64,000 nucleotides of DNA from Auanema rhodensis. Lineage: Eukaryota; Animalia; Nematoda. The translations under genes were made by a program, and so were the position numbers. Under the pieces are notes generated by a model. It was not told the DNA's origin. It worked only from the letters and a program-made list of their open reading frames with translations, and ran no database searches. The DNA is taken from positions 12,710,001 through 12,774,000 of the forward strand of contig OZ059895.1 of assembly GCA_964057225.1 (NCBI GenBank), written 5' to 3'. This document shows positions 421 through 56,140 of this stretch, in pieces (position 1 is the stretch's first letter; the number at the start of each line of letters is the position of its first letter).

Positions 421-3400
421 TCATTTCCTATTCCTAGTGCTGCGGCAAGTGTTCCAATTTTTGATTGCTGGTGAGTTTTTGTTTCTGTCCTCAAATAGCT
501 CCTTTCTGTTTTCATTCTTGAATTGATCTCGTAGCTTTTCGTATGTTTTTGCGTTATTATCTTCTATATCGTTTTGATTAGGACCTTCTTCTTGAGAGAA
601 AGGTGTCAGCTGTCTGAGGTCCTCTTGAATTCTGTCGATTGTTGTTGATTCATCTTCTAATTGTATATTAGAATTTGTTATTCTTCTTGCTGTAGCAAGG
701 TCGTCAGGTGTTTCTGAATTATGTTCAATTTCTTCTTCGTTTACTCCTCTGTTATTCCCTGTGATAGGTAACAGTTGCGCGAGAGTATCTGGACTGCCTG
801 TTGGGTAACAGTTGTTGTTATTTTCCGTATTATTGGTTTGTTCCCATTCATCCAGATTATTCCAACTTGTTTCTTCTTCTTCTTCTTCGTTTGCTATGTC
901 TTGGTCCTCTTCTTCCTCTTCTTCATTATTTCTTGTTGATATAAGATTATCGTCTGGTGGAAAATAACGTATGTTATTTTTGTGAGCTTTTATAATATTT
1001 TCATCTTGATCCGTTATGCTGATGTTGTTTCCTTCAATTGTCACTATCCGGTATGGTCCATCTCTTCGTATTTGTAATTTGTTGCTTGGGTTCGCTCTTT
1101 GTACAAATACTCGATCTCCTATATCTAATATTCTTTCTTTTGTCCTATGTGCTTGATCGTATTTCTGCTTCATTCTTTTTTCATTGGTGGCAATCTTTTC
1201 CTTGACTTTTTCTTGAATATCTCTTAAGTTTTTGAGCTGATCCGTGATATTTTGTTCTTCCGGTGTTTCCAAGTTTTTGTCAATGGGTAGACGTGCTACT
1301 TGTCCAAACAAACATTCGTATGGTGATGTTTTAGTGGTGGCGTTTGGTAATCTGTTGAGTGTAAAAATAATCTTCGGAAGTATTTTATCCCAATCGTTTT
1401 GTTCGTCATTAACGTAGGCTGTTAATGCTTCTTCGATCGTCCGATGCAATCTTTCTACTTGTCCGTTAGCGTTTTTGTAATACGGCATAGTAGTGTGGTG
1501 TGTAGTTCCAAAATTACTGCACATAGTAGTGAAATCGTTTGAAATAAAATTAGATCCATTGTCTGTGATGATAGTGACAGGTGGTCCAAAAACATAGAAA
1601 AGATATTTTTCGATAGCTGATATAATTTCTTCTGATGTTTGTCTGATTAGCGGAATTGCGATTATCCATTTTGAAAAAGAATCTTGAATTGAAAGAACAT
1701 ATCTGTTTTCTTGTTCTGTCCTAGGTAATGGTCCGAGTATATCCATGTGTACTCTTTGCCATGGTTTTGTTGATGTTGGAAAATTTTTCATTGGTTCCAC
1801 CGTTGCTTCGTGAGGGTTGTTCTTTCTTTTCGCACAAGCAAGACATCTGTTGATGTAGTTTGTAATGTCTTCTTGCATTCCAGTCCATGTAAATCGTCTT
1901 GATATTGAGTCCATTGTTTTGTTTATTCCTAGATGAGCTCCGAGTGTCGGATCTTCATGAAATTTCTTCATAATTGGATTAATTATGTGCTCTTCTCGTG
2001 GTAAAATTGTTCGTGGTACTTGTAGGCTTCTCTTTGGTTTTGAGTATAGTACATCGTTGTACACAATATATCTGTCCGTCAGTTGTCGTCCAGCTGTGTT
2101 ATTCTTTATTTTATCCATAGTTTCTTTTATCCAATTTGATTGATTCTGAACTGATCGAATATCTGCTATCGTGAAGGTGTTTATCTGATGAATAGTATCT
2201 TCCGTCGTTTTTCTTTCGTTTTTCTTCTTTGCTGGTGGTTTTGCTTCGTTGATTTCATCTTCAAAATATCGTGATAATGCGTCACATACACTGTTTAATT
2301 TTCCTGGTCTGTAGATAATTTCAATATCGTATTCTTGTAAAACAATTTGAAATTTTGCTAAACGATCTATTAAATCCTTTCTAGTCATTAAACTAGTAAG
2401 TGGTCTATGATCCGTGATAATTTTGGTTGCTGTTCCTAGTATGTAGGTGCGAAATTGTTTGACGGCGAATGTAAGAGCTAATGCTTCTACTTCTATTGGT
2501 GGATAATTCCTTTCAGCTTTGTTGAGTTTCCGACTAGCAAAAGCTATTGGATGTAATGGTTCTTGATCGTCTTTCGCTTGAAGTAGCACAGCGCCAACTG
2601 CTATCATACTTCCATCACTTTCAATAACATATGGTCGCTTCGGGATTGGTGCTTGTAACACAGGTGCTTGAGTCAATGTTTTCTTCAAAGTATTAAAAGC
2701 AATTTCTTCTTCTTCTGTCCATTTGAACGGAGTGTCTTTCCGAGTGAGGTTGTAGAGTGGTGTTGCTATTCCTGCAGCGTTCTTTATGAACCTTCTGAAG
2801 TAGTTTACTACTCCCATGAAAGCTCTTACTCCTGTTGTTGATTTTGGTTGGGGATAATCTTGTATTGCCTTAATTTTATGTGGGTCCGGTTTAATTCCTT
2901 CTTGTCCAACTATGTATCCTAGAAATTTTACTTCCTTTCTTGCGAATGCGCATTTCTTCAGTTTTATTTTGAATCCTATTTGAGTTACTGCTTCCAAAAC
3001 TTCTTCAATATCTTTTAAATGTGCTGTCGTAGATTCAGAGATTAACAGTAAATCATCTAGATATACGAATAGCTTGCATTTAACCATTGATTGCATGTAT
3101 CGTACTGCGTTTTGAAAAGTATGGGGTGATCCACATAATCCCATCGGCATTCGACAATATTGATAAGTTCCACTTGTTGTTGTGAAAGCTGTAAGATGAC
3201 GATCTTCTTTCTTAAGAGGTATTTGGAAAAATCCAGATACTAAATCAAAGTTGCTGAAGATCCTTGCTCCAGCGGCCAAATCTAGGATGTCCTGTATGTT
3301 TGATATGACATATACTTGTTTCTGAGTGATTGCATTCAGAGCTCGAAAGTCCGTTACAAATCTATAAGTTTTGTCTTTCTTCTTCACCAAAATTACTGGA

Positions 3401-6400
3401 CTAGTTGTCATTGAGTTTGATGGTTCAATGATTCTTTGTTGTAGCATTTCTTCTATTTGTTTCTCCACTTCTTCTTGTTGGGAGAGTGGTATACGATAAG
3501 TAATTTTGAATGATGGTGTTTTTCCTGGCATGATTGGAATGGAGTGTTCAATTGGTCCTAGGAAGAGTCCGATATTTCTATCTTTGTTGAGAAACGCTTG
3601 TTTATGTAGTAAAATTATTTCTTTCAGTTGCTGTTGTTCGATTTGTGAGAAGCAGGCTTCTGAAAGGTCAAGCTCATTGATGAAATTGTCTGGAAAATAT
3701 GGCAGTTGCTCTTCCCATCGAGCTTCCGGAGGTATGTATTGTCCTTCGTATTTTTCTTGGTTGTCCTTTGGTATCGCTTCTGCTATCCCTATTTCTTGGT
3801 TCATTTGAATTTCGAGTGGCTGTTTGCATATGTTCGTCGCGTAAATTTGTACTCCGTATCCAGTGGGCGTAAATATAGTAGGCGTGAAAGAGAGTTTGTT
3901 GCCTGGTTTCTTACAATCTAGAAACGCCTGTTCATAGCTTTCTGGATCGTGTACTTCTAGCGTGAGCGTTCTTGTTTCTCCTGGTCTTAGCGTTTTGTTT
4001 TCTAAGCTAACCACATATGCTTTTGTGGTCTGGTGTTCCCACGGAGATGTTTCTCGTGCTAGTGGAACATGTGTTGTGCCGATAACAATTGTTTTATCCA
4101 GCGGTCGAAGTGAGGTGTAAATTCCTTGTTGATGTAATGCTTCCATGAAGTCTATTCCAAGTAACACTGGTGCTGGACAGTAGTTATCTTCTGCTACATA
4201 AAATTTGTGTTCTGTTTCTGTTGTTCCTATTGTTATGAGGATCCTTGTGTATCCCATAAATGAGAATTTAGATTTATTCGCGACTATCGCTGTTGTTTGT
4301 TTTAGTACCATCGTTGCAGCGGGCAGTTGTTTGAAGGTGGATTCTCGCATGTATGATGCTGATGCTCCCGTGTCCCATAGTGCCTTAAAGATGTGATTGT
4401 GGATTGAAATCGGGACAAACGGTAATTGTGATCCTCCTATGTAATTTATGTTTTCTTTCTTCATGCTTGTAGGGAAATAAGCTTCATAAATGTGTTCAGG
4501 AATTGGTGCTGAAGGATCATACAATGTGAGTTGACAGCTGTTGTGATGGTTGTCGACGTATGGAGCAGACGGAGAAGGATGAGATGTTTCTGTTCTTGTG
4601 TTCTCAGTTGATAGTGGTTGTAAGTATTCTGTTTCCCATTTGACATTGTTGATGGGTATCCTTGAACTACATGCGTATATTTTTATTATCCAGGTGGCGA
4701 GTGTGATTATGCCAATTGTTATGATGATTGATCCAATGATAGCAAGTACGCGTAGTGTCCAGGTTTGAATCTTTTCCCATATTGGTGACAGAAAGTCAAA
4801 CATTTTCCAAGTTATAGCTTCTTTTGTATGTTCGTAGCTGAGTAGTAAGCTGCTGGCTGCTCCTGCTGTTAGGGTAACAGGGTTCATGTTAGGAATTAAT
4901 CTTTGTTTGATTACAGGTTTTATTCTTCCTGGTAAAGTAGCCTGTAGCGTTGCTAAGCTGGATCCATATGATATTGCTAGTGCCATAGGAAACGTTGATT
5001 CTGTTAGATTGTTGAAAATGTTGCTTCCATTAAACTTGATATGTTCTAGGTTGATTGATCCTAACTCGTCGATGTATGCTGGTGATGTTACATTTATTGA
5101 TTGGTTATTATTAGTCCATTGATCGTTTTCTTTCCAGGGATCCTTGATTGTGAATCCGCATGGTATGGCATGTGCCATCGGTGTGAGGTCTCTTGTACCT
5201 GGTAGGATGAACAGTTGGCCGTGATGTTCCGTTTCGACTGGGGTTTCCAGAAAACACGTGCTGTTGACTTTGTGATCACGGTATGTTTTTGTAATTTGAA
5301 TTGGTGTGCATGGCATTACATAAATTAGTTTATCATTTATGAATCTTGCAGATATATCCTGTCGTCGTAGCATTGTACGCATCCCTATAGTAGGATTTAT
5401 TTGAAGAATAGCCCACCAGGTAAGTAGTTGTTTATTTTGTACGTGGCAGATGTTGTTTCTGTTTGTTGTGAACGTACGTATGATATCATCTTCCAGATTG
5501 GTAGTGGCATATTGTAGATGAGATTGCGTTTCTTGTTGATGAAGATGTTCATTCCATTTTTGGACGATATCGTTCTTAGCTTTAAGGTAGTCTACGTGAG
5601 CTTTCTTACCAATATGTGATGATATTTCTTCAGGTGTGCTGCGAGTGGTAGTGATAGATCTTTTTGTAGTTCTTGGAGGCGGTGACTTGGTGAGTGATTC
5701 TTTCCTATTGTATTCCTGGCTTGAGGTGATTGTGATTGGGTTTGTAGTAATATTGAATGTAGATTGGGGGGTGGAGAATGATTGTGTTGGTCGATGAGTG
5801 GTGAATATAGTTGTGGTTGTTGTAGGTGTTGTGGTTGTTGTTGATCTGGGTCTAGCAGTAGTAGAAGTAGTAGTAGTAGTAGTGGTAGTAGTAGTAGTAG
5901 TTGATGAAGACGTGGGTATTGTTGGTTTGGGTCTAGTTGTTGTGGATATATGTGTTTTGGGTGTGATTGTCGAAGTGATGACGTTCCTTATGGTTGTAGG
6001 CTTAGGGGTCGTGGTAGTGGTTGTAGTAGTAGTTTGTAGGGGGGTCGAAGTGCTTCTAATTGTGGTTGCAAAAGGTCGTGTTCCGGGAGTACTGATAAGG
6101 GGTAGATAATGATTATAAAATTTTTCACTATCCTCTTGTGTAATGCTATAATTTGTAGGATTTCTTTTCCGGAAGCCGTAGAATATATCGTCGCCATCGA
6201 AGATAACTGTGTAGTTTGGCAGTTGTAATGGTGGTAAGTTCAGTTCTTTTTCATATTTGATCCATTTCTTCATTTCTGCTTCGTATTCTTCTTTTGAATG
6301 TAGCTTCTTCGGATTATTTATTGCGTTCAGGATAATTTTTGCTTGTGCTAGTTGTTCGTACAGTTCTAAATCGTTTCGTGTCTTGGTGAGTCTTGGTTTT

Positions 6401-9400
6401 CTTGGTGGCATGAGTTGATATAAGTATTCTTCTAAAGATGGTGTTGTTTCTCCTGTAGCTAACGTAGTAGGTATTTCCGCAAGTGAGTAAGCAATTTCTT
6501 TCGCGATTTCATAGTAGTCTCCTGTTTTGGTTGGTAGTATCTTCTTTAAATCCTTAATTGTGATCCGTTTGCTAAGTTTATGCGTAAGTTCCTTATACGA
6601 TAGATTATCGATCGCGATTTTTGTTGCTTCTCTTATTTCTGCTTCTCCTAGGGCGTGTAGAATGGCTATGTTGACGTCTTCATATTTGTGCCATATAAGA
6701 CGATTTTTGATAACATCAAAATTTATACCTAGGTATTTGAAGATTGCGATATACTTAGGTAACATATTTGTTATGTTATTGAGATTGTAATGGATGTCAA
6801 GTCTTTTCCGTTGAATATAGGTTGTATATAGTAGAATAGTTCCGGTTTTGCTGGCTGAATATCTTAGCGAGGGGTATTGATGAACTGTCAAGAATCCTTT
6901 AGGGTATTCCGTGATTGCGTGTCTTCTTGATCGTCCTAAGCTTGAGGTTGAGTTGAAGGAGATTAGAGTTCCACTATTTGTAGTAAATATATCTTTTTGT
7001 AAGCATGAGGAGGCTTCTTTTTCCGGTGTTTTATTGTTTAGAATAAAAGCACTTTGAATTCCGGGAATCAATATGGTGTCTTCTGATATAAAAACTTCGT
7101 GAGAGCCTAATGAAGTGTACGAGCAACTATGTTTTTCTGATGGTGGGGTCCATATGATGAGAGCGTTGTTGGTTAGGCATTGTCCTTTGTCACTGGTGCA
7201 TCCGTTGTCGTTTATGAATATATCTGAGAGTACTGTATTGTCTTGTAGGCTGGTCATGTGTCCTCGTTCAGCTATGAATCTGGTACGTTGTTCGCATTCC
7301 TGTTTCCATATACCATTAGTAATGGTTGTCTCTGGGAATGGAGTTCCATAGAGTCCTGGTGCTTCTCTTTGAAGGTTGGTACCGTTGAATATTCTTTCTT
7401 TAATAGCTGACGAACATTCTTGCAGTGTTGTTGGTGAAACTTTTGCTAGTGAGACATTAGTTTCTCTGATGAAGAAAACGTCGTGAATGCAGAGTTGGTA
7501 AGTTTCAATTGCACATTTCCATGCTTCCCATTCTTTTGGTTGTAGGTTTTGGATGAACAATTCTGCTGTTGTCTTCTGGATATGGTTATTAGTTGGTGCG
7601 GTGGATCGGCAAGCTGTTGGAGATGGCGGCTCGACATATATTCCTCCTCTGTTTCCTGTGCATAACTGGTACGTTGTTTCTGCACTGCATGTGTTTATAA
7701 TGAGTGCGATAATTGTGATAAAAAGGGGTAGGAATGGTGTTGATTTTCTTTTGTTGTTCGGTACTTCGTTTTCCGTGACGTTGTTGACTTGAAAACGTAC
7801 TCCTGGGCTCTGTGTGCGTTCTCTATACCGTTCCGGTCCATTGGAGGTGCTGCGCGGGCGACTTCTATAATTGTTGTATTGGCTTCGATTGTATTGAGAG
7901 GGGTATTGTTCGTGATTATTTGATTGTCGCCGGTTGTTGTGTCCGCTATAGTTTTGGTCGCGGTTTCGATAGTATGGTCTTTCTTGGCTTCTGTTCCGTG
8001 ATCTGTCGAAGTAGTTTTGTCTTGATCCCTTATTTTGAGAGAATCGTGAGTTATGGTTCCTGTATTGGTGTTGATGAGGCCGATATTGGTTGTTGTATCT
8101 GTCCGGATATCGGTTGTGTGGTTTGCCATTGCCATTATACATCGGTTTGGTTCCTTTGAAATCCTTAGATTCGTTTCTCTGGTATTGATTGTTGTCCTTC
8201 GAGTCTCGAATGTTGAGGTTGTTGAACGACTTCTCTATATTGTTGACAAACGATGTTGGTCTATTTTGTATAAAGAGTTCTTCTCGTAAGGCCATTTCGT
8301 AAGCTTCCTCAAAGTTTGGTGGGTCTAGACGGCTAACATGTTCGCTTATTTCGGGTCTTAGTCCCCAAGTGAAGGTGGATCGGAGCATGTTAAGCTCACT
8401 TTCGTTGTTCATGTCCATAGCCGAGTAGGCTTCGTTAGAACATCTTGTTGCAAAGCTTTGTACCGATTCCGTTGGTAACTGTTTCAAGCCATGTAGGCGG
8501 TGCATTGCTCGTTCTCTCTGTTTTTTCGGTGTGATCATTTCTGAGAGTCGCTTCTTGACATGGTCCCATCCGAGTCGCTTATCTTCGGTTGTGAGTTTTC
8601 TGTACGCTTCTCTTGCTCGATCATCTTCTAGCAATAATTGTATGCTTTGAAGACGTTCGGGCATAGTTGTTCTTGTAGCGTTGAAGTGTTCATCTAGGTA
8701 TAGTAGATAGCGGTTGAATGGTGTTTTTCCATCGTAGCGTGGAGCTTTTATATCGCGTATGGCGGACGGAATCGCTGCTGGTTGAGGGATGATTGTAGGT
8801 GTTGGAACAGGTGCCCTTCCCGAGGTTTGCGTAAGTGGTGCGCCTTCGTCCATTGGGTCCATTCTTGGGTTAATTCTCTTGTTTTCTGCAACAAAAGTAT
8901 TTGCTTGATTAGTTTGCGATGGAAGAGACGGAGATAGAGAATGCCCGGATGTAGAATGATCAATGGATGAAGGTGAGTTTCGTAGAGGTGGGGATGAGCT
9001 TACTGCGGGTGTGGTTGAAGAAAGTGCGGGCGTAGGTGATTTTTGTGTGGTTGGTGTATTGCTTCTTCTAGGGGTGGCTATTAAAGGATTGATTGGGTTG
9101 ATTGTATTTGGTATGGTGTTGGTTGGGGGGTTTTGAGGGTTCCCTTTGCTTGCTATGTTTTTAGGAATAGGTTTAATGTTTGGGATAATTTTCTTTTCTA
9201 AGGTGTTTCTTTCGACTATGTCTGTTTTTTGTTTCTTCGTTTTTTCATGTGATTTGGGATTGGTGAATTGTTTTTGAATGCCGCGATGTCTTGGGGTATG
9301 TATTACCATTGACTTTGTTTTAATGCTTAACTTCGCTTGTTTTGCAGAGGGGGGAGAATATGTTGCGGGCGGTTGTCTTTTTCTTCTTATAATATTTGAA

Positions 9401-9447
9401 GTGGCAGCAGGGTCCAGCAGAGGTTTTGGACCAGTATTGGGCAGCAT
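421..9447 (-). CDS. Gag-Env-Pol polyprotein (~3008 aa from the first ATG at 9447; the ORF track starts at TTG 9492)
   Basis: Gag capsid-like region (APRYDGK...LKQLPTESVQSF...LRSTFTWGL); signal peptide 7740-7681; gB-like ectodomain; TM 4749-4684; protease ALWDTGAS (D at 4374-4372); RT FDLVSGFFQI, MPMGL, YLDD (3063-3052); RNase H ESDGS/IAFASRKL/TDH/DALSR; integrase HHCC, HMDILGP/ITDNGSNF/NGQVERLH, GPY. No stop or frameshift. Confidence 0.95.
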   Translation of the reverse strand: MLPNTGPKPLLDPAATSNIIRRKRQPPATYSPPSAKQAKLSIKTKSMVIHTPRHRGIQKQFTNPKSHEKTKKQKTDIVERNTLEKKIIPNIKPIPKNIASKGNPQNPPTNTIPNTINPINPLIATPRRSNTPTTQKSPTPALSSTTPAVSSSPPLRNSPSSIDHSTSGHSLSPSLPSQTNQANTFVAENKRINPRMDPMDEGAPLTQTSGRAPVPTPTIIPQPAAIPSAIRDIKAPRYDGKTPFNRYLLYLDEHFNATRTTMPERLQSIQLLLEDDRAREAYRKLTTEDKRLGWDHVKKRLSEMITPKKQRERAMHRLHGLKQLPTESVQSFATRCSNEAYSAMDMNNESELNMLRSTFTWGLRPEISEHVSRLDPPNFEEAYEMALREELFIQNRPTSFVNNIEKSFNNLNIRDSKDNNQYQRNESKDFKGTKPMYNGNGKPHNRYPDRYNNQYRPHQHQYRNHNSRFSQNKGSRQNYFDRSRNRSQERPYYRNRDQNYSGHNNRRQSNNHEQYPSQYNRSQYNNYRSRPRSTSNGPERYRERTQSPGVRFQVNNVTENEVPNNKRKSTPFLPLFITIIALIINTCSAETTYQLCTGNRGGIYVEPPSPTACRSTAPTNNHIQKTTAELFIQNLQPKEWEAWKCAIETYQLCIHDVFFIRETNVSLAKVSPTTLQECSSAIKERIFNGTNLQREAPGLYGTPFPETTITNGIWKQECEQRTRFIAERGHMTSLQDNTVLSDIFINDNGCTSDKGQCLTNNALIIWTPPSEKHSCSYTSLGSHEVFISEDTILIPGIQSAFILNNKTPEKEASSCLQKDIFTTNSGTLISFNSTSSLGRSRRHAITEYPKGFLTVHQYPSLRYSASKTGTILLYTTYIQRKRLDIHYNLNNITNMLPKYIAIFKYLGINFDVIKNRLIWHKYEDVNIAILHALGEAEIREATKIAIDNLSYKELTHKLSKRITIKDLKKILPTKTGDYYEIAKEIAYSLAEIPTTLATGETTPSLEEYLYQLMPPRKPRLTKTRNDLELYEQLAQAKIILNAINNPKKLHSKEEYEAEMKKWIKYEKELNLPPLQLPNYTVIFDGDDIFYGFRKRNPTNYSITQEDSEKFYNHYLPLISTPGTRPFATTIRSTSTPLQTTTTTTTTTPKPTTIRNVITSTITPKTHISTTTRPKPTIPTSSSTTTTTTTTTTTTSTTARPRSTTTTTPTTTTTIFTTHRPTQSFSTPQSTFNITTNPITITSSQEYNRKESLTKSPPPRTTKRSITTTRSTPEEISSHIGKKAHVDYLKAKNDIVQKWNEHLHQQETQSHLQYATTNLEDDIIRTFTTNRNNICHVQNKQLLTWWAILQINPTIGMRTMLRRQDISARFINDKLIYVMPCTPIQITKTYRDHKVNSTCFLETPVETEHHGQLFILPGTRDLTPMAHAIPCGFTIKDPWKENDQWTNNNQSINVTSPAYIDELGSINLEHIKFNGSNIFNNLTESTFPMALAISYGSSLATLQATLPGRIKPVIKQRLIPNMNPVTLTAGAASSLLLSYEHTKEAITWKMFDFLSPIWEKIQTWTLRVLAIIGSIIITIGIITLATWIIKIYACSSRIPINNVKWETEYLQPLSTENTRTETSHPSPSAPYVDNHHNSCQLTLYDPSAPIPEHIYEAYFPTSMKKENINYIGGSQLPFVPISIHNHIFKALWDTGASASYMRESTFKQLPAATMVLKQTTAIVANKSKFSFMGYTRILITIGTTETEHKFYVAEDNYCPAPVLLGIDFMEALHQQGIYTSLRPLDKTIVIGTTHVPLARETSPWEHQTTKAYVVSLENKTLRPGETRTLTLEVHDPESYEQAFLDCKKPGNKLSFTPTIFTPTGYGVQIYATNICKQPLEIQMNQEIGIAEAIPKDNQEKYEGQYIPPEARWEEQLPYFPDNFINELDLSEACFSQIEQQQLKEIILLHKQAFLNKDRNIGLFLGPIEHSIPIMPGKTPSFKITYRIPLSQQEEVEKQIEEMLQQRIIEPSNSMTTSPVILVKKKDKTYRFVTDFRALNAITQKQVYVISNIQDILDLAAGARIFSNFDLVSGFFQIPLKKEDRHLTAFTTTSGTYQYCRMPMGLCGSPHTFQNAVRYMQSMVKCKLFVYLDDLLLISESTTAHLKDIEEVLEAVTQIGFKIKLKKCAFARKEVKFLGYIVGQEGIKPDPHKIKAIQDYPQPKSTTGVRAFMGVVNYFRRFIKNAAGIATPLYNLTRKDTPFKWTEEEEIAFNTLKKTLTQAPVLQAPIPKRPYVIESDGSMIAVGAVLLQAKDDQEPLHPIAFASRKLNKAERNYPPIEVEALALTFAVKQFRTYILGTATKIITDHRPLTSLMTRKDLIDRLAKFQIVLQEYDIEIIYRPGKLNSVCDALSRYFEDEINEAKPPAKKKNERKTTEDTIHQINTFTIADIRSVQNQSNWIKETMDKIKNNTAGRQLTDRYIVYNDVLYSKPKRSLQVPRTILPREEHIINPIMKKFHEDPTLGAHLGINKTMDSISRRFTWTGMQEDITNYINRCLACAKRKNNPHEATVEPMKNFPTSTKPWQRVHMDILGPLPRTEQENRYVLSIQDSFSKWIIAIPLIRQTSEEIISAIEKYLFYVFGPPVTIITDNGSNFISNDFTTMCSNFGTTHHTTMPYYKNANGQVERLHRTIEEALTAYVNDEQNDWDKILPKIIFTLNRLPNATTKTSPYECLFGQVARLPIDKNLETPEEQNITDQLKNLRDIQEKVKEKIATNEKRMKQKYDQAHRTKERILDIGDRVFVQRANPSNKLQIRRDGPYRIVTIEGNNISITDQDENIIKAHKNNIRYFPPDDNLISTRNNEEEEEEDQDIANEEEEEETSWNNLDEWEQTNNTENNNNCYPTGSPDTLAQLLPITGNNRGVNEEEIEHNSETPDDLATARRITNSNIQLEDESTTIDRIQEDLRQLTPFSQEEGPNQNDIEDNNAKTYEKLRDQFKNENRKELFEDRNKNSPAIKNWNTCRSTRNRK
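950..4440 (-). other. Pol region of element A (PR, spacer, RT, RNase H, integrase)
   Basis: Catalytic motifs DTG, YLDD, RNase H acidic residues and integrase DDE occur in Ty3/gypsy order. Boundaries are approximate. Confidence 0.93.
4684..7740 (-). other. Envelope glycoprotein domain of element A, herpesvirus gB-like class III fusogen
   Basis: Signal PFLPLFITIIALIINTCSA|ETTYQLC; YQLC..GG....PPSPTAC resembles the gB N-terminal FYVCPPPTGATVV..PRRC; furin site RSRR at 6933-6922; HLQY..ICHVQN..WWAILQINP..ISARF..PC (5520-5299) resembles gB RLQF..WCELQN..LWNEARKLNP..VSARML..TC; many N-x-S/T sequons; C-terminal TM helix. Confidence 0.85.
5640..6070 (-). repeat. Thr-rich mucin-like low-complexity segment within Env (ACT/ACA/ACC codon runs; (GTA)n on + strand)
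   Basis: TTTTTTTTTPKP..SSSTTTTTTTTTTTTSTT in the ORF; gtagtagtagta runs around 5856-5900. Confidence 0.9.
7741..9447 (-). other. Gag region of element A: basic Pro/Ser/Thr-rich N-terminus, capsid domain (~8750-8250), Arg/Asn/Tyr/Gln-rich NC-like tail
   Basis: Capsid C-terminal segment aligns by eye with element B (LRSTFTWGL..PPNFEEAYEMALREE vs LRSTFLRGL..PKTFAEAIDNARWEE). No CCHC knuckle is present. Confidence 0.85.
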
Positions 9448-10682
9448 CGTTGGTATCCTGTAAGGAAATTTGTTATATCCAACGTGTGCCAAAATAATTT
9501 TATATATAGAAAAACGTGAAGAATAATGTTGGGTTTGTGTGCGCGATTCTTATGAAGGTAGCTAGTCTTGCAAGTAATCTCTTTACCAATATAGCTCGTC
9601 CGGGTCTAACACAGGTTTGAAACTAGTGTGCCTTTTCGAAGGGACAAGTTCTATATTGTGAAAAAGGCATGAAATGAAAGTTAATAGTTCGCCAGTCTTT
9701 TGGGACAAGGATACAAAAATAGAATTTTTCGCAATCATTTCATTTTCCCAGACCTCATTAACCTATCTGAGTCACAGGTATGTCAGCTGCCTTCTGCATC
9801 CTGCTCCCTGACTCTATGATGGCGAGACCACTCTTATTATTTGTATCAATGTGGGGCAGATTTTAATTCAAAAATTCTCTAATTATTTCATGGGGCGTAC
9901 GTCTTATCCTGAGTGTCGGCCTCCGCTCGAGTCTCTTGAGTGTCTGGCATTATTCTTAACGAGGGGGGGGATGGTTTTTGCGTATGAGTTAAAACTTATT
10001 GATTAATTTAATTATTTTTCGTTTTTTCAGGTGCTAAGGTAATCGGAATTTGGATACGCTGCGCCTAATAAATATTTTTACTGTCGTGTTTAACACGGGA
10101 TTTCTTGTTTATGAAATTACGGGGGGGGGAAGGGGTGGGTTTATGAGAATACAGTGTAGTAGCATAAGAATAATAGTTTTATAAACGAACATAAAGAAAA
10201 TAATGAAAATATGGTATGATAGGATGATTAAGATAGTATGATAAGATGAAGATTCAGATAATATGATAAGATGATTAAGATTGAGAGGTATAGAAGCAAT
10301 ATTCTTTTTTATTTCTTAATTCTAAATTAATTTTATAAAGAACTTAACTATTTTTGTTCAAAAATGTGAAAATAAACTTATAATTCTTAGAAAAGTTAAT
10401 TATTGAATTTGAATAATTTTCGTATATAGGATTTTGGATAGAGAGAATGATAAATGATATAAGTACTCTTATGAATAATTGAAAATGATTTATGAGAATA
10501 TAATGAATGGAAAACTGAGTTTTTGTAAATAGTTTTTGGATATAATTTTTAATAGAAAAGTTTTAGAGTTTTTAAGAAAATATTATAAGCTAACTTTAAG
10601 AGAGAGATAAGATTTTTAATTGAATAAGAGATGTAGACGGTAGCGCTTGAGTTCCTTTACGAGATCCTGTCCAAAAGGAAGG

Positions 10683-10700
10683 ATCTCGGTGGAACCTCCA
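10683..10700 (-). promoter_or_regulatory. Primer binding site complementary to the tRNA-Gln 3' end
   Basis: The + strand reads ATCTCGGTGGAACCTCCA, the conserved 3' 18 nt (including CCA) of metazoan tRNA-Gln as I recall it, directly adjacent to the LTR. Confidence 0.9.
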
Positions 10701-10829
10701 CGTTCCATTTAGATTCTCAATGGTTCCAAGTTGAGAGATCCAAACAGACTATGAGAAGATGAGTATGATTTTAAATATAAGTGTGTAATGTAAGGTGAAA
10801 TAAGAAACAAAAGATGAAATGTATAAAGG

Positions 10830-10835
10830 TTTATT
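10830..10835 (-). terminator. LTR polyadenylation signal AATAAA (element A)
   Basis: + strand tttatt, ~130 bp from the U5 end; the same offset is seen in element B. Confidence 0.6.
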
Positions 10836-10955
10836 GTTCGCATTATAATATAATTATACCAAGATTAAAGCTAGAGTTAAGAAAGAGAATATAAAGAAGA
10901 TAAAGAGAAAGTAAGATAATGAGATAATGAGATGCCTGAGTCTTGAGGACTCAGG

Positions 10956-10963
10956 TTTATATA
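10956..10963 (-). promoter_or_regulatory. LTR TATA box (TATATAAA)
   Basis: + strand tttatata, ~155 bp inside the LTR start and upstream of the polyA signal. Confidence 0.65.
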
Positions 10964-11206
10964 TCCATACAACTCCTACTCAGTTTACACAAATTGTTAC
11001 AAAGCTTATAAAAAGTGCATCTAGAATATTCTCAGAATTGCTTAAAAACTATCTGCATTAGTTTAATAATAGCAGCTGCCATGGTCAGCTGCTTTCCTTT
11101 GAGATATGTATGTAACATAACGTAGAAAATTACATAACTAACATGAAATTGGAAAAAAAACAATAACGAGGATAAGTATGTAAATCATTGAATATCAGGT
11201 ATTTTC

Positions 11207-11325
11207 GCTTACGACCATACCACGTTGAAAGTACGCCATCCCGTCCGATCTGGCAAGTGAAGCAACGTTGGGCCCGGTTAGTACTTGGATCGGAGACGGC
11301 TTGGGAATCCCGGGTGCCGTAAGCT
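11207..11325 (+). rRNA. 5S rRNA: First 5S rRNA gene (variant C53G)
   Basis: Full-length 5S; AAGTGAAGC in place of the array consensus AAGTCAAGC at 11259. Confidence 0.95.
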
Positions 11326-11339
11326 TTTCAAATTTTTTT
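11325..11339 (+). terminator. Pol III terminator (T4 then T7), repeated in every full unit
   Basis: GCTTTTCAAATTTTTTT directly after the 5S 3' end. Confidence 0.9.
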
Positions 11340-11340
11340 A

Positions 11341-11369
11341 ACGATCATACCACGTTGAAAGTACGCCAT
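11341..11369 (+). pseudogene. 29-bp duplicate of 5S nt 5-33 (one mismatch) downstream of the terminator, in every full unit
   Basis: ACGATCATACCACGTTGAAAGTACGCCAT vs gene ACGACCATACCACGTTGAAAGTACGCCAT, 130 bp apart. Confidence 0.92.
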
Positions 11370-11734
11370 GCAGCTGATTTTCAATTTTATCTCTTCAGTA
11401 ACAAATGTTTTTAATTTTCCAGCAGTTTTACTTAGATAGCTCAACCCAAGGCATCAAAATATCTTCAATCTTATTTCTATATTACAGTTATAAACCAGTA
11501 GTTTATGAACCTTCATCTTAACTTTACTGTTTCTATCTATTTCCTATTGAAACAAACATTGTTTTAACACTATACAACTGTGAAACCTTTTTTAATTTAT
11601 TGTATTTGGAGCTCATAAGATTTGATATCATCGAGGAATTTAGATGTAACGTAGAAAATTACATAACTAACATGAAATTGAAAAAAAACAATAACGAGGA
11701 TAAGTATGTAAATCATTGAATATCAGATTTTTTC

Positions 11735-11767
11735 GCTTACGACCATACCACGTTGAAAGTACGCCAT
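11735..11767 (+). pseudogene. Truncated 5S (nt 1-33 only), first of 15 copies
   Basis: GCTTACGACC...CGCCAT joined directly to GCAGCTG spacer. Starts at 11735, 12133, 15705, 16632, 17560, 21132, 23646, 25631, 29732, 31717, 33174, 34631, 42437, 45481, 53815. Confidence 0.95.
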
Positions 11768-13060
11768 GCAGCTGATTTTCAATTTTATCTCTTCCGTAAC
11801 AAATGTTTTTAATTTTCCAGCAGTTTTACTTAGATAGCTCAACCCAAGGCATCAAAATATCTTCAATCTTATTTCTATATTACAGTTATAAACCAGTAGT
11901 TTATGAACCTTCATCTTAACTTTACTGTTTCTATCTATTTCCTATTGAAACAAACATTGTTTTAACACTATACAACTGTGAAACCTTTTTTAATTTATTG
12001 TATTTGGAGCTCATAAGATTTGATATCATCGAGGAATTTAGATGTAACGTAGAAAATTACATAACTAACATGAAATTGAAAAAAAACAATAACGAGGATA
12101 AGTATGTAAATCATTGAATATCAGATTTTTTCGCTTACGACCATACCACGTTGAAAGTACGCCATGCAGCTGATTTTCAATTTTATCTCTTCCGTAACAA
12201 ATGTTTTTAATTTTCCAGCAGTTTTACTTAGATAGCTCAACCCAAGGCATCAAAATATCTTCAATCTTATTTCTATATTACAGTTATAAACCAGTAGTTT
12301 ATGAACCTTCATCTTAACTTTACTGTTTCTATCTATTTCCTATTGGAACAAACATTGTTTTAACACTATACAACTGTGAAACCTTTTTTAATTTATTGTA
12401 TTTGGAGCTCATAAGATTTGATATCATCGAGGAATTTAGATGTAACGTAGAAAATTACATAACTAACATGAAATTGGAAAAAAAACAATAACGAGGATAA
12501 GTATGTAAATCATTGAATATCAGGTATTTTCGCTTACGACCATACCACGTTGAAAGTACGCCATCCCGTCCGATCTGGCAAGTCAAGCAACGTTGGGCCC
12601 GGTTAGTACTTGGATCGGAGACGGCTTGGGAATCCCGGGTGCCGTAAGCTTTTCAAATTTTTTTAACGATCATACCACGTTGAAAGTACGCCATGCAGCT
12701 GATTTTCAATTTTATCTCTTCAGTAACAAATGTTTTTAATTTTCCAGCAGTTTTACTTAGATAGCTCAACCCAAGGCATCAAAATATCTTCAATCTTATT
12801 TCTATATTACAGTTATAAACCAGTAGTTTATGAACCTTCATCTTAACTTTACTGTTTCTATCTATTTCCTATTGAAACAAACATTGTTTTAACACTATAC
12901 AACTGTGAAACCTTTTTTAATTTATTGTATTTGGAGCTCATAAGATTTGATATCATCGAGTAATTTAGATGTAACGTAGAAAATTACATAACTAACATGA
13001 AATTGGAAAAAAAACAATAACGAGGATAAGTATGTAAATCATTGAATATCAGGTATTTTC

Positions 13061-13179
13061 GCTTACGACCATACCACGTTGAAAGTACGCCATCCCGTCC
13101 GATCTGGCAAGTCAAGCAACGTTGGGCCCGGTTAGTACTTGGATCGGAGACGGCTTGGGAATCCCGGGTGCCGTAAGCT
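13061..13179 (+). rRNA. 5S rRNA: Representative consensus 5S rRNA gene
   Basis: 5' GCTTACG pairs with 3' CGTAAGC (helix I); internal control region AGTCAAGCAACG...GTACTTGGATCGGAG. Confidence 0.98.
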
Positions 13180-16100
13180 TTTCAAATTTTTTTAACGATC
13201 ATACCACGTTGAAAGTACGCCATGCAGCTGATTTTCAATTTTATCTCTTCAGTAACAAATGTTTTTAATTTTCCAGCAGTTTTACTTAGATAGCTCAACC
13301 CAAGGCATCAAAATATCTTCAATCTTATTTCTATATTACAGTTATAAACCAGTAGTTTATGAACCTTCATCTTAACTTTACTGTTTCTATCTATTTCCTA
13401 TTGAAACAAACATTGTTTTAACACTATACAACTGTGAAACCTTTTTTAATTTATTGTATTTGGAGCTCATAAGATTTGATATCATCGAGGAATTTAGATG
13501 TAACGTAGAAAATTACATAACTAACATGAAATTGGAAAAAAAACAATAACGAGGATAAGTATGTAAATCATTGAATATCAGGTATTTTCGCTTACGACCA
13601 TACCACGTTGAAAGTACGCCATCCCGTCCGATCTGGCAAGTCAAGCAACGTTGGGCCCGGTTAGTACTTGGATCGGAGACGGCTTGGGAATCCCGGGTGC
13701 CGTAAGCTTTTCAAATTTTTTTAACGATCATACCACGTTGAAAGTACGCCATGCAGCTGATTTTCAATTTTATCTCTTCAGTAACAAATGTTTTTAATTT
13801 TCCAGCAGTTTTACTTAGATAGCTCAACCCAAGGCATCAAAATATCTTCAATCTTATTTCTATATTACAGTTATAAACCAGTAGTTTATGAACCTTCATC
13901 TTAACTTTACTGTTTCTATCTATTTCCTATTGAAACAAACATTGTTTTAACACTATACAACTGTGAAACCTTTTTTAATTTATTGTATTTGGAGCTCATA
14001 AGATTTGATATCATCGAGGAATTTAGATGTAACGTAGAAAATTACATAACTAACATGAAATTGGAAAAAAAACAATAACGAGGATAAGTATGTAAATCAT
14101 TGAATATCAGATTTTTTCGCTTACGACCATACCACGTTGAAAGTACGCCATCCCGTCCGATCTGGCAAGTCAAGCAACGTTGGGCCCGGTTAGTACTTGG
14201 ATCGAAGACGGCTTGGGAATCCCGGGTGCCGTAAGCTTTTCAAATTTTTTTAACGATCATACCACGTTGAAAGTACGCCATGCAGCTGATTTTCAATTTT
14301 ATCTCTTCAGTAACAAATGTTTTTAATTTTCCAGCAGTTTTACTTAGATAGCTCAACCCAAGGCATCAAAATATCTTCAATCTTATTTCTATATTACAGT
14401 TATAAACCAGTAGTTTATGAACCTTCATCTTAACTTTACTGTTTCTATCTATTTCCTATTGAAACAAACATTGTTTTAACACTATACAACTGTGAAACCT
14501 TTTTTAATTTATTGTATTTGGAGCTCATAAGATTTGATATCATCGAGGAATTTAGATGTAACGTAGAAAATTACATAACTAACATGAAATTGGAAAAAAA
14601 ACAATAACGAGGATAAGTATGTAAATCATTGAATATCAGGTATTTTCGCTTACGACCATACCACGTTGAAAGTACGCCATCCCGTCCGATCTGGCAAGTC
14701 AAGCAACGTTGGGCCCGGTTAGTACTTGGATCGGAGACGGCTTGGGAATCCCGGGTGCCGTAAGCTTTTCAAATTTTTTTAACGATCATACCACGTTGAA
14801 AGTACGCCATGCAGCTGATTTTCAATTTTATCTCTTCAGTAACAAATGTTTTTAATTTTCCAGCAGTTTTACTTAGATAGCTCAACCCAAGGCATCAAAA
14901 TATCTTCAATCTTATTTCTATGTTACAGTTATAAACCAGTAGTTTATGAACCTTCATCTTAACTTTACTGTTTCTATCTATTTCCTATTGAAACAAACAT
15001 TGTTTTAACACTATACAACTGTGAAACCTTTTTTAATTTATTGTATTTGGAGCTCATAAGATTTGATATCATCGAGGAATTTAGATGTAACGTAGAAAAT
15101 TACATAACTAACATGAAATTGGAAAAAAAACAATAACGAGGATAAGTATGTAAATCATTGAATATCAGGTATTTTCGCTTACGACCATACCACGTTGAAA
15201 GTACGCCATCCCGTCCGATCTGGCAAGTCAAGCAACGTTGGGCCCGGTTAGTACTTGGATCGGAGACGGCTTGGGAATCCCGGGTGCCGTAAGCTTTTCA
15301 ATTTTTTTTAACGATCATACCACGTTGAAAGTACGCAATGCAGCTGATTTTCAATTTTATCTCTTCCGTAACAAATGTTTTTAATTTTCCAGCAGTTTTA
15401 CTTAGATAGCTCAACCCAAGGCATCAAAATATCTTCAATCTTATTTCTATATTACAGTTATAAACCAGTAGTTTATGAACCTTCATCTTAACTTTACTGT
15501 TTCTATCTATTTCCTATTGAAACAAACATTGTTTAAACACTATACAACTGTGAAACCTTTTTTAATTTATTGTATTTGGAGCTCATAAGATTTGATATCA
15601 TCGAGGAATTTAGATGTAACGTAGAAAATTACATAACTAACATGAAATTGAAAAAAAACAATAACGAGGATAAGTATGTAAATCATTGAATATCAGATTT
15701 TTTCGCTTACGACCATACCACGTTGAAAGTACGCCATGCAGCTGATTTTCAATTTTATCTCTTCAGTAACAAATGTTTTTAATTTTCCAGCAGTTTTACT
15801 TAGATAGCTCAACCCAAGGCATCAAAATATCTTCAATCTTATTTCTATATTACAGTTATAAACCAGTAGTTTATGAACCTTCATCTTAACTTTACTGTTT
15901 CTATCTATTTCCTATTGAAACAAACATTGTTTTAACACTATACAACTGTGAAACCTTTTTTAATTTATTGTATTTGGAGCTCATAAGATTTGATATCATC
16001 GAGGAATTTAGATGTAACGTAGAAAATTACATAACTAACATGAAATTGGAAAAAAAACAATAACGAGGATAAGTATGTAAATCATTGAATATCAGATTTT

Positions 16101-19100
16101 TTCGCTTACGACCATACCACGTTGAAAGTACGCCATCCCGTCCGATCTGGCAAGTCAAGCAACGTTGGGCCCGGTTAGTACTTGGATCGGAGACGGCTTG
16201 GGAATCCCGGGTGCCGTAAGCTTTTCAAATTTTTTTAACGATCATACCACGTTGAAAGTACGCCATGCAGCTGATTTTCAATTTTATCTCTTCAGTAACA
16301 AATGTTTTTAATTTTCCAGCAGTTTTACTTAGATAGCTCAACCCAAGGCATCAAAATATCTTCAATCTTATTTCTATATTACAGTTATAAACCAGTAGTT
16401 TATGAACCTTCATCTTAACTTTACTGTTTCTATCTATTTCCTATTGAAACAAACATTGTTTTAACACTATACAACTGTGAAACCTTTTTTAATTTATTGT
16501 ATTTGGAGCTCATAAGATTTGATATCATCGAGGAATTTAGATGTAACGTAGAAAATTACATAACTAACATGAAATTGAAAAAAAACAATAACGAGGATAA
16601 GTATGTAAATCATTGAATATCAGATTTTTTCGCTTACGACCATACCACGTTGAAAGTACGCCATGCAGCTGATTTTCAATTTTATCTCTTCCGTAACAAA
16701 TGTTTTTAATTTTCCAGCAGTTTTACTTAGATAGCTCAACCCAAGGCATCAAAATATCTTCAATCTTATTTCTATATTACAGTTATAAACCAGTAGTTTA
16801 TGAACCTTCATCTTAACTTTACTGTTTCTATCTATTTCCTATTGGAACAAACATTGTTTTAACACTATACAACTGTGAAACCTTTTTTAATTTATTGTAT
16901 TTGGAGCTCATAAGATTTGATATCATCGAGGAATTTAGATGTAACGTAGAAAATTACATAACTAACATGAAATTGGAAAAAAAAACAATAACGAGGATAA
17001 GTATGTAAATCATTGAATATCAGGTATTTTCGCTTACGACCATACCACGTTGAAAGTACGCCATCCCGTCCGATCTGGCAAGTCAAGCAACGTTGGGCCC
17101 GGTTAGTACTTGGATCGGAGACGGCTTGGGAATCCCGGGTGCCGTAAGCTTTTCAAATTTTTTTAACGATCATACCACGTTGAAAGTACGCCATGCAGCT
17201 GATTTTCAATTTTATCTCTTCAGTAACAAATGTTTTTAATTTTCCAGCAGTTTTACTTAGATAGCTCAACCCAAGGCATCAAAATATCTTCAATCTTATT
17301 TCTATATTACAGTTATAAACCAGTAGTTTATGAACCTTCATCTTAACTTTACTGTTTCTATCTATTTCCTATTGAAACAAACATTGTTTTAACACTATAC
17401 AACTGTGAAACCTTTTTTAATTTATTGTATTTGGAGCTCATAAGATTTGATATCATCGAGGAATTTAGATGTAACGTAGAAAATTACATAACTAACATGA
17501 AATTGAAAAAAAACAATAACGAGGATAAGTATGTAAATCATTGAATATCAGATTTTTTCGCTTACGACCATACCACGTTGAAAGTACGCCATGCAGCTGA
17601 TTTTCAATTTTATCTCTTCCGTAACAAATGTTTTTAATTTTCCAGCAGTTTTACTTAGATAGCTCAACCCAAGGCATCAAAATATCTTCAATCTTATTTC
17701 TATATTACAGTTATAAACCAGTAGTTTATGAACCTTCATCTTAACTTTACTGTTTCTATCTATTTCCTATTGGAACAAACATTGTTTTAACACTATACAA
17801 CTGTGAAACCTTTTTTAATTTATTGTATTTGGAGCTCATAAGATTTGATATCATCGAGGAATTTAGATGTAACGTAGAAAATTACATAACTAACATGAAA
17901 TTGGAAAAAAAACAATAACGAGGATAAGTATGTAAATCATTGAATATCAGGTATTTTCGCTTACGACCATACCACGTTGAAAGTACGCCATCCCGTCCGA
18001 TCTGGCAAGTCAAGCAACGTTGGGCCCGGTTAGTACTTGGATCGGAGACGGCTTGGGAATCCCGGGTGCCGTAAGCTTTTCAAATTTTTTTAACGATCAT
18101 ACCACGTTGAAAGTACGCCATGCAGCTGATTTTCAATTTTATCTCTTCAGTAACAAATGTTTTTAATTTTCCAGCAGTTTTACTTAGATAGCTCAACCCA
18201 AGGCATCAAAATATCTTCAATCTTATTTCTATATTACAGTTATAAACCAGTAGTTTATGAACCTTCATCTTAACTTTACTGTTTCTATCTATTTCCTATT
18301 GAAACAAACATTGTTTTAACACTATACAACTGTGAAACCTTTTTTAATTTATTGTATTTGGAGCTCATAAGATTTGATATCATCGAGGAATTTAGATGTA
18401 ACGTAGAAAATTACATAACTAACATGAAATTGGAAAAAAAACAATAACGAGGATAAGTATGTAAATCATTGAATATCAGGTATTTTCGCTTACGACCATA
18501 CCACGTTGAAAGTACGCCATCCCGTCCGATCTGGCAAGTCAAGCAACGTTGGGCCCGGTTAGTACTTGGATCGGAGACGGCTTGGGAATCCCGGGTGCCG
18601 TAAGCTTTTCAAATTTTTTTAACGATCATACCACGTTGAAAGTACGCCATGCAGCTGATTTTCAATTTTATCTCTTCAGTAACAAATGTTTTTAATTTTC
18701 CAGCAGTTTTACTTAGATAGCTCAACCCAAGGCATCAAAATATCTTCAATCTTATTTCTATATTACAGTTATAAACCAGTAGTTTATGAACCTTCATCTT
18801 AACTTTACTGTTTCTATCTATTTCCTATTGAAACAAACATTGTTTTAACACTATACAACTGTGAAACCTTTTTTAATTTATTGTATTTGGAGCTCATAAG
18901 ATTTGATATCATCGAGGAATTTAGATGTAACGTAGAAAATTACATAACTAACATGAAATTGGAAAAAAAACAATAACGAGGATAAGTATGTAAATCATTG
19001 AATATCAGGTATTTTCGCTTACGACCATACCACGTTGAAAGTACGCCATCCCGTCCGATCTGGCAAGTCAAGCAACGTTGGGCCCGGTTAGTACTTGGAT

Positions 19101-55100: not shown

Positions 55101-55271
55101 TAACACTATACAACTGTGAAACCTTTTTTAATTTATTGTATTTGGAGCTCATAAGATTTGATATCATCGAGGAATTTAGATGTAACGTAGAAAATTACAT
55201 AACTAACATGAAATTGGAAAAAAAACAATAACGAGGATAAGTATGTAAATCATTGAATATCAGGTATTTTC

Positions 55272-55390
55272 GCTTACGACCATACCACGTTGAAAGTACG
55301 CCATCCCGTCCGATCTGGCAAGTCAAGCAACGTTGGGCCCGGTTAGTACTTGGATCGGAGACGGCTTGGGAATCCCGGGTGCCGTAAGCT
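55272..55390 (+). rRNA. 5S rRNA: Last 5S rRNA gene before element B
   Basis: Consensus sequence. Confidence 0.97.
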
Positions 55391-55586
55391 TTTCAAATTT
55401 TTTTAACGATCATACCACGTTGAAAGTACGCCATGCAGCTGATTTTCAATTTTATCTCTTCAGTAACAAATGTTTTTAATTTTCCAGCAGTTTTACTTAG
55501 ATAGCTCAACCCAAGGCATCAAAATATCTTCAATCTTATTTCTATATTACAGTTATAAACCAGTAGTTTATGAACCTTCATCTTAA

Positions 55587-56140
55587 CGTTCCCTTATGCT
55601 CCTGCGTCGATAATATAAACCATTGTAGTTTATACTATGACGCGCATAGTATTCCTTGGTGTAGCGGTGAGGAATAAAGAGCATAAGGTCAATCATAAGA
55701 TAAAAGAGAGAAAGATTTATTAGCATGAAACTACAACAATAATATACAAAGATAAAGATACAATACAATAATATAAATATAAGTATAAAGACTAAACTAC
55801 AAGCCGTCCATGAGCTTGCTAAGAGGCGAACTCCCGACCAAGGGAACGAGGGAAGGCGGAGCCATTCCTCGGTCCTCTGGTCGTCTGGCTCTAACCCTTC
55901 AGCTACATATATGGGGAGTCCGAATGGAACGTGCCCTTTTTCAAAGATTTTTCGCGTCCGCGCGATATAAAGAGTTTTTAGTGTATATGTAGCTGAGTTT
56001 TAGAGTCTAGGAGTTTACAAATAAAATTAAAAGTTTTAAAATCTACATGTAGAAAGATATATAAATAATTTTAATAGGTTTCTTTATGGTATTAAGATAG
56101 AATTTGAATACAATAATAGGTTTTATGTTATTTTGTAACG
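55587..56140 (-). repeat. Putative 3' LTR of element B (right boundary uncertain)
   Basis: Left end CGTTCC is identical to element A's U5 end; AATAAA on - at 55716-55721; TATA-like CATATATGTAG near 55903-55913; candidate U3 start TGTAACG at 56134-56140 resembles element A's TGTAACA. No clear PPT found. Confidence 0.55.

Follow-up and report, generated by a model that had tools for sequence, protein, structure and literature searches.

Two retroelements and a 5S rDNA array

Based on the whole stretch of DNA analysed here (the window; 64,000 nucleotides of contig OZ059895.1 of the rhabditid nematode Auanema rhodensis), two retroelements, A and B, were recognized on the minus strand, to which all coordinates given below for these elements refer. 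The two are separated by a 5S rDNA array on the plus strand (11118..55586). Element A has one open frame (421..9549; 3042 codons stop to stop, with the first Met at 9447) in which hydrophobic stretches lie between Gag and the envelope (env) and again between env and Pol, the order being Gag-Env-PR-RT-RH-IN. The Gag capsid core lies at 8356..8625 (Retrotrans_gag, 21.8 bits, below the cut-off of 24.1). The env of A occupies 999 residues of the frame (4684..7680); it is preceded by a putative internal signal sequence (7681..7737) and ends in a predicted transmembrane anchor (4684..4770), both called by hydropathy and not by a trained predictor, and the protease comes next in frame.

The Pol of element A, as delimited by domain matches (1429..4425), shows the Ty3/gypsy order, namely protease (4132-4425), RT (2908-3387, with YLDD), RNase H (2329-2721) and integrase (1429-1983), and matched the Pfam families RVT_1, RT_RNaseH, Integrase_H2C2 and rve. 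Peptidase_A17, DUF1759 and DUF5641 were absent from the Pol of both elements in a Pfam search at E ≤ 0.1. The PR-RT-RH-IN order, the gypsy-type domains and the absence of Pao domains place the elements in Ty3/gypsy (Metaviridae). The hallmarks of BEL/Pao (Belpaoviridae), a Pao peptidase, DUF5641 and an env after the integrase, are missing from both, and the position of env between gag and pol in A and B corresponds to that of the GAG-ENV-POL errantiviruses with an HSV/gB-type env.

Element B is represented by a frame open at its 5' end (56640..63998, 2452 codons) with the same order as in A; its RT is 68% identical to that of A, and its env (about 60549-63398) 31% identical. Neither element is both-ended within the window: A has a 5' LTR (10701..11117) and a primer-binding site (10689..10700), the complement of which is the tRNA-Gln site listed for two Caenorhabditis errantiviruses, its 3' LTR falling outside, and B has a polypurine tract and a 3' LTR (55587..55942, boundaries judged by eye). 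The array between them comprises 88 units of 529, 530 or 398 bp, 73 of which contain a full 5S gene. Site-specific targeting of 5S genes was not supported, as A is placed 89 bp ahead of the start of a 5S gene and B 197 bp beyond the end of one, and a literature search for 5S-associated nematode LTR elements gave nothing on point.

Motifs and predicted fold of the envelope

A preliminary description of this DNA had claimed motifs of herpesvirus gB in both envs, and all of them are present. In A these are the C..GG...PP...C strand (7609-7662), LQY (5506-5520), ICHVQN (5434-5451), SARF (5341-5352) and CFLETPV (5236-5256), with a furin-type RSRR at 6922..6933; the corresponding motifs of B are found at 63327-63380, 61341-61355, 61269-61286, 61176-61187 and 61071-61091, and its furin-type site is RQKR (62598-62609). 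The pattern given for the central helix holds for the most part, except that element A reads LTWW and not LW. The N-half of the A env (6946..7680, 10 cysteines) resembles domains I and II of gB and has two putative fusion loops (about 7465-7488 and 7306-7317), whereas the C-half (5050..5607, 4 cysteines) corresponds to the domain IV strands and domain III helix, the long helix itself spanning 5398-5607. The thirteen env cysteine columns examined are kept in 70-100% of the filled rows, and the columns of V68 and F69 in the first fusion loop of A are 91-92% hydrophobic.

The likeness to gB goes beyond chance, because the profile matches in PDB are mostly or entirely gB: a two-sequence profile of A and B gave 43 matches at E ≤ 10, all 43 to herpesvirus gB (best, 8.9e-6), and with a profile of 101 env sequences 54 of the 59 matches at E ≤ 0.01 were herpesvirus gB chains (best E-value = 1e-15). 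With the A env alone, phmmer against PDB reached only E-values of 0.82-0.88, and a word-index search among proteins of 549-1749 residues gave none of 7425 candidates. Pfam Monjiviricetes_fusion (PF24664, curated cut-off 27 bits) scored 63.5 bits on the B env and 46.9 on the C-half of the A env, above its cut-off in both cases. The herpes family Glycoprotein_B (PF00606), however, scored 25-39 bits on the two envs, under its curated cut-off of 43; judged by these scores, they may work like gB and yet fall outside the herpesvirus gB family.

A single-sequence AlphaFold model was set aside (pLDDT 36). The monomer model of the A env that was used has a mean pLDDT of 66 and a pTM of 0.49, with pLDDT mostly above 85 at residues 11-240 and 691-860, about 45-87 per block in the insert, below 45 in the stalk, and low confidence in the domain V region. 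Its best structural match was prefusion-stabilised HSV-1 gB (Z = 12.8, 4.7 Å rmsd, 342 residues aligned, taking in model residues 1-876). Among 48,161 chains the top six were gB (Z = 8.9-11.3), followed by Chandipura G (8.2), and the matches after gB were rhabdovirus G and thogotovirus Gp. In BFVD, the top matches were mononegaviral glycoproteins and gB; identity to the viral proteins matched by structure was 8-17%. The proposal that a Ty3/gypsy backbone carries here an env of class III, gB-like fold is thus backed by the profile and structure searches and by the Pol domains. On this model the A env appears to have the fold common to gB, rhabdovirus G and thogotovirus/gp64-type proteins, and a gB-like ectodomain (domains I-V with cysteine bridges) is predicted between the signal/TM and the TM.

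With the gBs of HSV-1, EBV and HCMV the A and B envs share the predicted fold, the domain order and the long central helix, although identity is about 14%. With the mononegaviral G proteins (Nyamiviridae, rhabdo- and chu-like) they share scores above the PF24664 cut-off and the top BFVD places; those glycoproteins, however, are products of free viral genes, whereas these envs are embedded in Gag-Pol.

Proposed function of the envelope and its long linker

We consider it very probable that this is the open env of a Ty3/gypsy GAG-ENV-POL retroelement (an errantivirus sensu Chary and Hayashi), with a predicted gB-type class III fold that likely lets particles fuse with a neighbouring cell. From the anatomy of env and the way class III fusogens work, we infer that the polyprotein would pass the ER membrane twice, with Gag and Pol cytosolic and env lumenal; signal peptidase would release the N-terminus of env, and the element's protease would separate Pol from its tail. 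Furin cleavage at RSRR would give two disulfide-linked chains, the membrane-anchored one of which would carry the helical insert and the Thr-rich stalk at its N-terminus. The env would trimerise, and its two hydrophobic domain I loops would insert in the target membrane, after which env would refold. In this way the element probably moves between host cells, e.g., from soma to germ line; transfer of this kind has been shown for Drosophila gypsy, which has an F-type env.

Any stop or frameshift in env would cost the element its Pol as well, so that the open frame is a poor guide to what env does. Four public runs contain the element, with no stop among the 34 substitutions listed (24 synonymous and 10 not; there are 68 further differences beyond these) and no indel in env among the listed differences. 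The env has six of these substitutions, of which 2 are synonymous and 4 nonsynonymous (one codon holds two), and therefore no purifying signal is visible in it. The linkage of gag, env and pol and the few, unbiased env substitutions would suit an env that retains its fold and has no entry role, helping, as a membrane anchor, to organise the assembly of capsids at the ER or riding as a passive passenger inside a Gag-Pol frame intolerant of stops. However, the cysteines, loops and furin site are retained in A and B though about two thirds of env positions differ, identity is higher in the env core (33-37%) than in the insert (24%), and env is kept in the family (before RT in 42 of the 46 proteins having both) although its in-frame loss would be tolerated. 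We regard an env with no entry role as rather unlikely, and retained fusion capacity, as judged from the open frame, conserved cysteines and furin site, as plausible.

The linker after the furin site of the A env has 480 residues, the second longest of 104 (family median, 66), and consists of a conserved helical domain (6070..6897, about 270 residues, no cysteine) and a Ser/Thr-rich stretch (5620..6069, 55%), which is predicted to be disordered and may form a mucin-like stalk. The preliminary description was silent on this non-gB insert, which makes up nearly half of the env. The helical insert is common to A, B and fragments of Auanema sp. JU1783. In HHalign it matched a short Caenorhabditis module well (probability 91%), the group-2 insert of Ancylostoma/Caenorhabditis weakly (27%) and group 3 not at all. 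The A or B insert matched no Pfam family and no PDB sequence below E 0.24; in the ESM Atlas the best score, 0.82, was inside the chance range, and a word search among longer candidates gave 0 of 7996, which is weak evidence. Literature searches on Auanema retroelement env and on envelopes of this kind with mucin-like inserts gave nothing on point. A furin-type site stands at this linker position in 27 of the 35 long linkers. Release of the insert through furin cleavage on both sides does not hold as a general rule, strict sites being found at both ends in only four of the 35, and the linker of A has no strict site on its C-side.

The insert of A occupies the loop between domains II and III, which in many gBs contains the furin cleavage site. 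Herpesvirus gB also requires the partners gH/gL (and gD), whereas these are not encoded in A or B. For the helical insert and stalk as an attachment or shielding module, the two roles taken together, we see about an even chance. A more specific idea, which we hold as tentative and rather doubtful, is that a nematode gypsy lineage grew, inside the furin loop, its own receptor-binding or prefusion-capping module, namely the helical domain on its Thr-rich stalk, to do the job of the herpesvirus gD and gH/gL; a gB-type fusogen would thereby have become a one-gene entry machine, and the module would grow or shrink from lineage to lineage as hosts change. The insert is important only if it is receptor-binding or regulatory, in which case it would show a gB-type fusogen working without the herpesvirus helper glycoproteins.

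Relatives and origin of the envelope

In the RT tree, which has no BEL/Pao outgroup, A and B (support 97) fall within a 99-supported group of env-bearing elements from Caenorhabditis and Diploscapter; in the env tree, which is unrooted and without viral rows, they join four Caenorhabditis envs (100/100), and the nearest nematode relatives are the same in both. The env tree parts the nematode gypsy group from BEL/Pao (100/100), the envs of which sit in a separate group of 14 rows along with five other gypsy envs. Env swapping between the superfamilies was not supported, as a topology uniting the BEL/Pao envs in a single clade could not be rejected (p-AU = 0.147). A gB-like env occurs in BEL/Pao as well, where the A and B profile matched 10 Pao-domain proteins in both env halves (E-value = 1e-37 to 2e-18). 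These BEL/Pao elements, like Tas of Ascaris, share the env family with A and B, but have a Pao-type Pol, a C-terminal env and short linkers (22-71 residues).

The independent capture of env suggested for this element is unsupported, because env travels with pol across the Caenorhabditis relatives. The closest relatives of the A and B envs belong to other nematode gypsy elements, with the local grouping seen for RT; therefore, any capture would predate the split from the Caenorhabditis elements. An old one may lie at the base of the nematode gypsy group, which as a whole may have gained env separately from BEL/Pao. Nematode gB-type Ty3/gypsy elements are said to have been first reported by Sacco et al. 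in J Gen Virol in 2022, under a title that reportedly claims capture of an RNA-virus glycoprotein by a nematode metavirus. That title, the higher scores of Monjiviricetes_fusion over herpes gB and the mononegaviral best matches in BFVD would speak for a recent, separate capture by this lineage from an RNA virus (mononegaviral G) or a herpesvirus, which we nevertheless find highly improbable given the closeness of the other nematode gypsy envs, their RT-like local grouping and the low identity of the viral structural matches.

The preliminary description also implied that a gB-type env on Ty3/gypsy was new. This cannot be maintained, because the combination and the GAG-ENV-POL order are already published for Nematoda (Chary and Hayashi, eLife 2026; PMC13524379), and the finding therefore adds a new, open and apparently current rhabditid member to the class. 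Element A resembles the nematode errantiviruses of that paper in gene order, in a gB-type env with cysteine-bridged domains I-V between two hydrophobic stretches, in a Ty3/gypsy Pol, and in its tRNA-Gln primer-binding site, which Clat_4 and Ctro_1 have in identical form, but differs in the 480 residues of its linker, which includes a full-length helical domain. The main text of that paper does not mention mucin, threonine, linker or disorder, its table marks 'extra domain(s)' for two branchiopod elements only, and Figure 5 supplement 1 may show nematode inserts. What is added to the published layout, on the sequence, would be an unusually long insert in a predicted fusion protein. Most such elements lack a demonstrated fusion activity or trigger (PMC13524379, Discussion), which makes the open copy suitable for tests.

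A host-domesticated, syncytin-like fusogen would agree with a frame open in four independent runs, but is barely credible: the env shares its frame with intact Gag and Pol, the element carries an LTR and a primer-binding site, its LTR has roughly double the depth of its interior in the three DNA runs, a ratio expected of elements with two LTRs, and the LTR ends continue into other flanks in run contigs. The contigs also show variants of the element, and the only spliced RNA seen for it is antisense.

The envelope of element A and its fold

The envelope of element A (4684-7680, minus strand) comprises 999 residues with a hydrophobic stretch on either side, and lies within a long open frame of 3042 codons (421-9549, minus strand); the frame of its relative in the window, element B, has 2452 codons (56640-63998, minus strand) and is open at the window edge. 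In Pfam searches, Pol of both elements showed aspartic protease, reverse transcriptase (RT), RNase H and integrase in the Ty3/gypsy order, a gag-like region was found at the start of element A, and the glycoprotein match was placed between gag and protease.

All of the herpesvirus glycoprotein B (gB) motifs named in the preliminary description were found in both envelopes. As a single query, the A envelope gave no significant PDB match and scored below the Pfam herpes gB cut-off; the Monjiviricetes_fusion cut-off of Pfam was passed by the B envelope and by the C-terminal half of the A envelope. A profile of the two envelopes matched 43 PDB entries, all 43 of them gB, and 393 proteins (E ≤ 0.001) among 1.84 billion representatives. 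The two envelopes were then aligned with 99 proteins, selected for a length under about 1400 residues from the best 150 of the 393, and the resulting 101-sequence profile matched 54 gB chains, one unrelated chain and four chains named 'Glycoprotein', which we take to be rabies G. Of the 14 ectodomain cysteines, the thirteen examined are each kept in 70–100% of the filled alignment rows.

The AlphaFold model of a single A envelope chain, made from the 101-sequence alignment, has a mean pLDDT of 66 (high in the N- and C-terminal halves, middling in a helical insert and low in a Thr-rich stretch). All of the 33 PDB matches listed by Foldseek were gB, and the best VIA-align match was prefusion-stabilised HSV-1 gB (Z 12.8, rmsd 4.7 Å, 342 residues, model 1-876). 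Because the rmsd was 5–8 Å to prefusion entries but about 41 Å to postfusion ones, the arrangement of the model is prefusion-like. In a wide structure search, six gB chains ranked on top and Chandipura G came next, while thogotovirus glycoproteins and a fragment of rabies G appeared further down amid coiled-coil noise; the best BFVD matches were mononegaviral glycoproteins, an entomopoxvirus protein and gB (8–17% identity). The class III reading thus survived the attempt at refutation set out in the preliminary description, as the searches revealed neither a non-class III fold nor a lack of gB or chuvirus profile matches. As the preliminary description had proposed, and on the basis of the Pol order, the profile matches and the gB-like model, it is well supported that the A envelope is a predicted class III fusogen of the gB type, carried on the backbone of a Ty3/gypsy element.

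Such a combination is already described as a class. According to Chary and Hayashi (PMC13524379), errantiviruses (env-bearing Ty3/gypsy elements) of Nematoda, Bryozoa and Platyhelminthes have only HSV/gB-type ENV, in GAG-ENV-POL order, and the flipped env order is credited to Sacco et al. 2022. The complement of the primer-binding site of element A is identical to the tRNA-Gln site of Clat_4 and Ctro_1 in their table. Merchant et al. (PMC9094657) confirm the statement of the preliminary description on Tas, reporting a weakly gB-like envelope in it; a search of passages of PMC3315495 yielded no statement on env. Element A is a further element of the described class, with a long uncharacterised insert.

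Relatives and inheritance of the envelope

A search with the region from the C-terminal half of the envelope to RNase H returned 162 proteins; among the 120 of them listed, the best matches include polyproteins of Caenorhabditis, Diploscapter and Ancylostoma in which this envelope likewise precedes Pol. A quick RT tree was built from 66 rows, of which 21 were env-bearing and 45 were the first of the others. In it, A and B were sisters, nested with elements of Caenorhabditis and Diploscapter in a group supported at 99. Both envelope trees (80 rows, FastTree; 35 rows, IQ-TREE; unrooted and made up of retroelement rows) again placed A and B with Caenorhabditis envelopes. Since the same grouping recurs in the RT and envelope trees, the envelope was inherited with pol here, and the independent capture suggested earlier is not supported for element A. 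Pao domains accompany the same envelope family in 10 of 20 proteins scanned. In the 35-row unrooted IQ-TREE tree, BEL/Pao envelopes stood apart from those of A and B, grouped with five other gypsy envelopes, and a single BEL/Pao envelope clade was not rejected (p-AU 0.147). One related gag-env-pol element (P0028) has a dUTPase domain directly before env.

The long insert and a possible mode of action

In 104 relatives with both envelope halves, a set in which relatives of A and B are over-represented and near-duplicates occur, the median length of the linker that joins domain II to the central helix is 66 residues; the linker reaches at least 200 residues in 27 and at least 400 in six. That of A (480 residues) is the second longest of the 104, and that of B has 443. 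In A, a furin-type site is followed by about 270 residues of predicted helices and then by 150 residues that are 55% Ser/Thr. Identity in the helical part is 24% between A and B and 20–36% to four Auanema fragments; the closest long-insert fragments came from Auanema sp. JU1783 in six of 10 looked up, and these fragments and the primer-binding site together suggest that the host is a rhabditid nematode. The helical part showed no family or structure match in Pfam, PDB or ESM Atlas, its fold being predicted only within the whole envelope. A short module of the helical part also occurs in five Caenorhabditis-type relatives (HHalign 91%). Long Thr-rich linkers are also present in Ancylostoma and Caenorhabditis elements, and the inserts therefore characterise the nematode group rather than A alone. 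They are undiscussed in the main text of Chary and Hayashi (PMC13524379), whose figure supplement may show more and whose table notes extra domains for two branchiopod envelopes.

From the observed anatomy and the predicted fold, we infer every step of a mechanism in which the polyprotein would cross the membrane twice and be released by signal peptidase, furin and the element's own protease; the envelope would then form a trimer and fuse membranes via two domain I loops, and the element would spread from cell to cell. After the furin cut, the anchored chain would begin with the insert, whose role is most plausibly attachment or shielding. Loss of the insert by double cleavage was ruled out as a general rule, with strict sites at both ends in only four of 35 long linkers.

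Possible current activity and genomic setting of the elements

Element A was found in 15 public runs from four studies, with at least half of the sampled words present in 14 of the 15. Four runs were aligned to it, three of DNA and one (X10) presumed to be RNA; one of the four alignments left out a portion of the Thr repeat. Among the differences listed, there was no env indel, and the 34 substitutions in the A frame (68 further differences lie beyond them) comprised 24 synonymous, 10 nonsynonymous and no stops. For env alone, the listed differences were two synonymous and four nonsynonymous, and thus give no evidence of constraint in env. All four runs have a short length difference from the window at about 447, close to the last codons of the A frame and within the acidic tail after integrase.

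In X10, nine splice joints (3584-6158; skips of 43–588 bases) lie on the plus strand, opposite to element A, and none occurs in the three DNA runs. Eight of the nine are GT-AG on the plus strand with typical donor and acceptor context, and the ninth is at a variant base. A spliced antisense RNA in this one run therefore spans pol and env; its spliced form contains no frame longer than 123 codons, and it is possibly related to silencing.

The 5' LTR of element A (10701-11117) directly adjoins the primer-binding site, and the polypurine tract and 3' LTR near 55587-55942 mark the end of element B. The LTR ends appear to be AACG rather than the usual CA (10701-10710; 55587-55933), and the B 3' LTR appears to start near CGTT; boundaries were placed by eye, those of A being backed by contig ends. 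An AT-rich leader of about 1.2 kb separates the primer-binding site from the first Met of A (9549-10688). About 200 residues rich in Pro, Ser and Thr precede the capsid core, and an Arg/Asn/Gln/Tyr-rich stretch is seen in A Gag instead of a visible Cys-His nucleocapsid knuckle.

A 5S rDNA array (11118-55586) separates the two elements; its 88 units measure 529, 530 or 398 bp. A full 5S gene is present in 73 of the 88 (70 of them identical) and only its 5' end in 15, and every unit has a second short 5S fragment. At both ends, the array adjoins a gag-env-pol element; the two are related and share one orientation, and the junctions of A and B are at different positions in the 5S unit.
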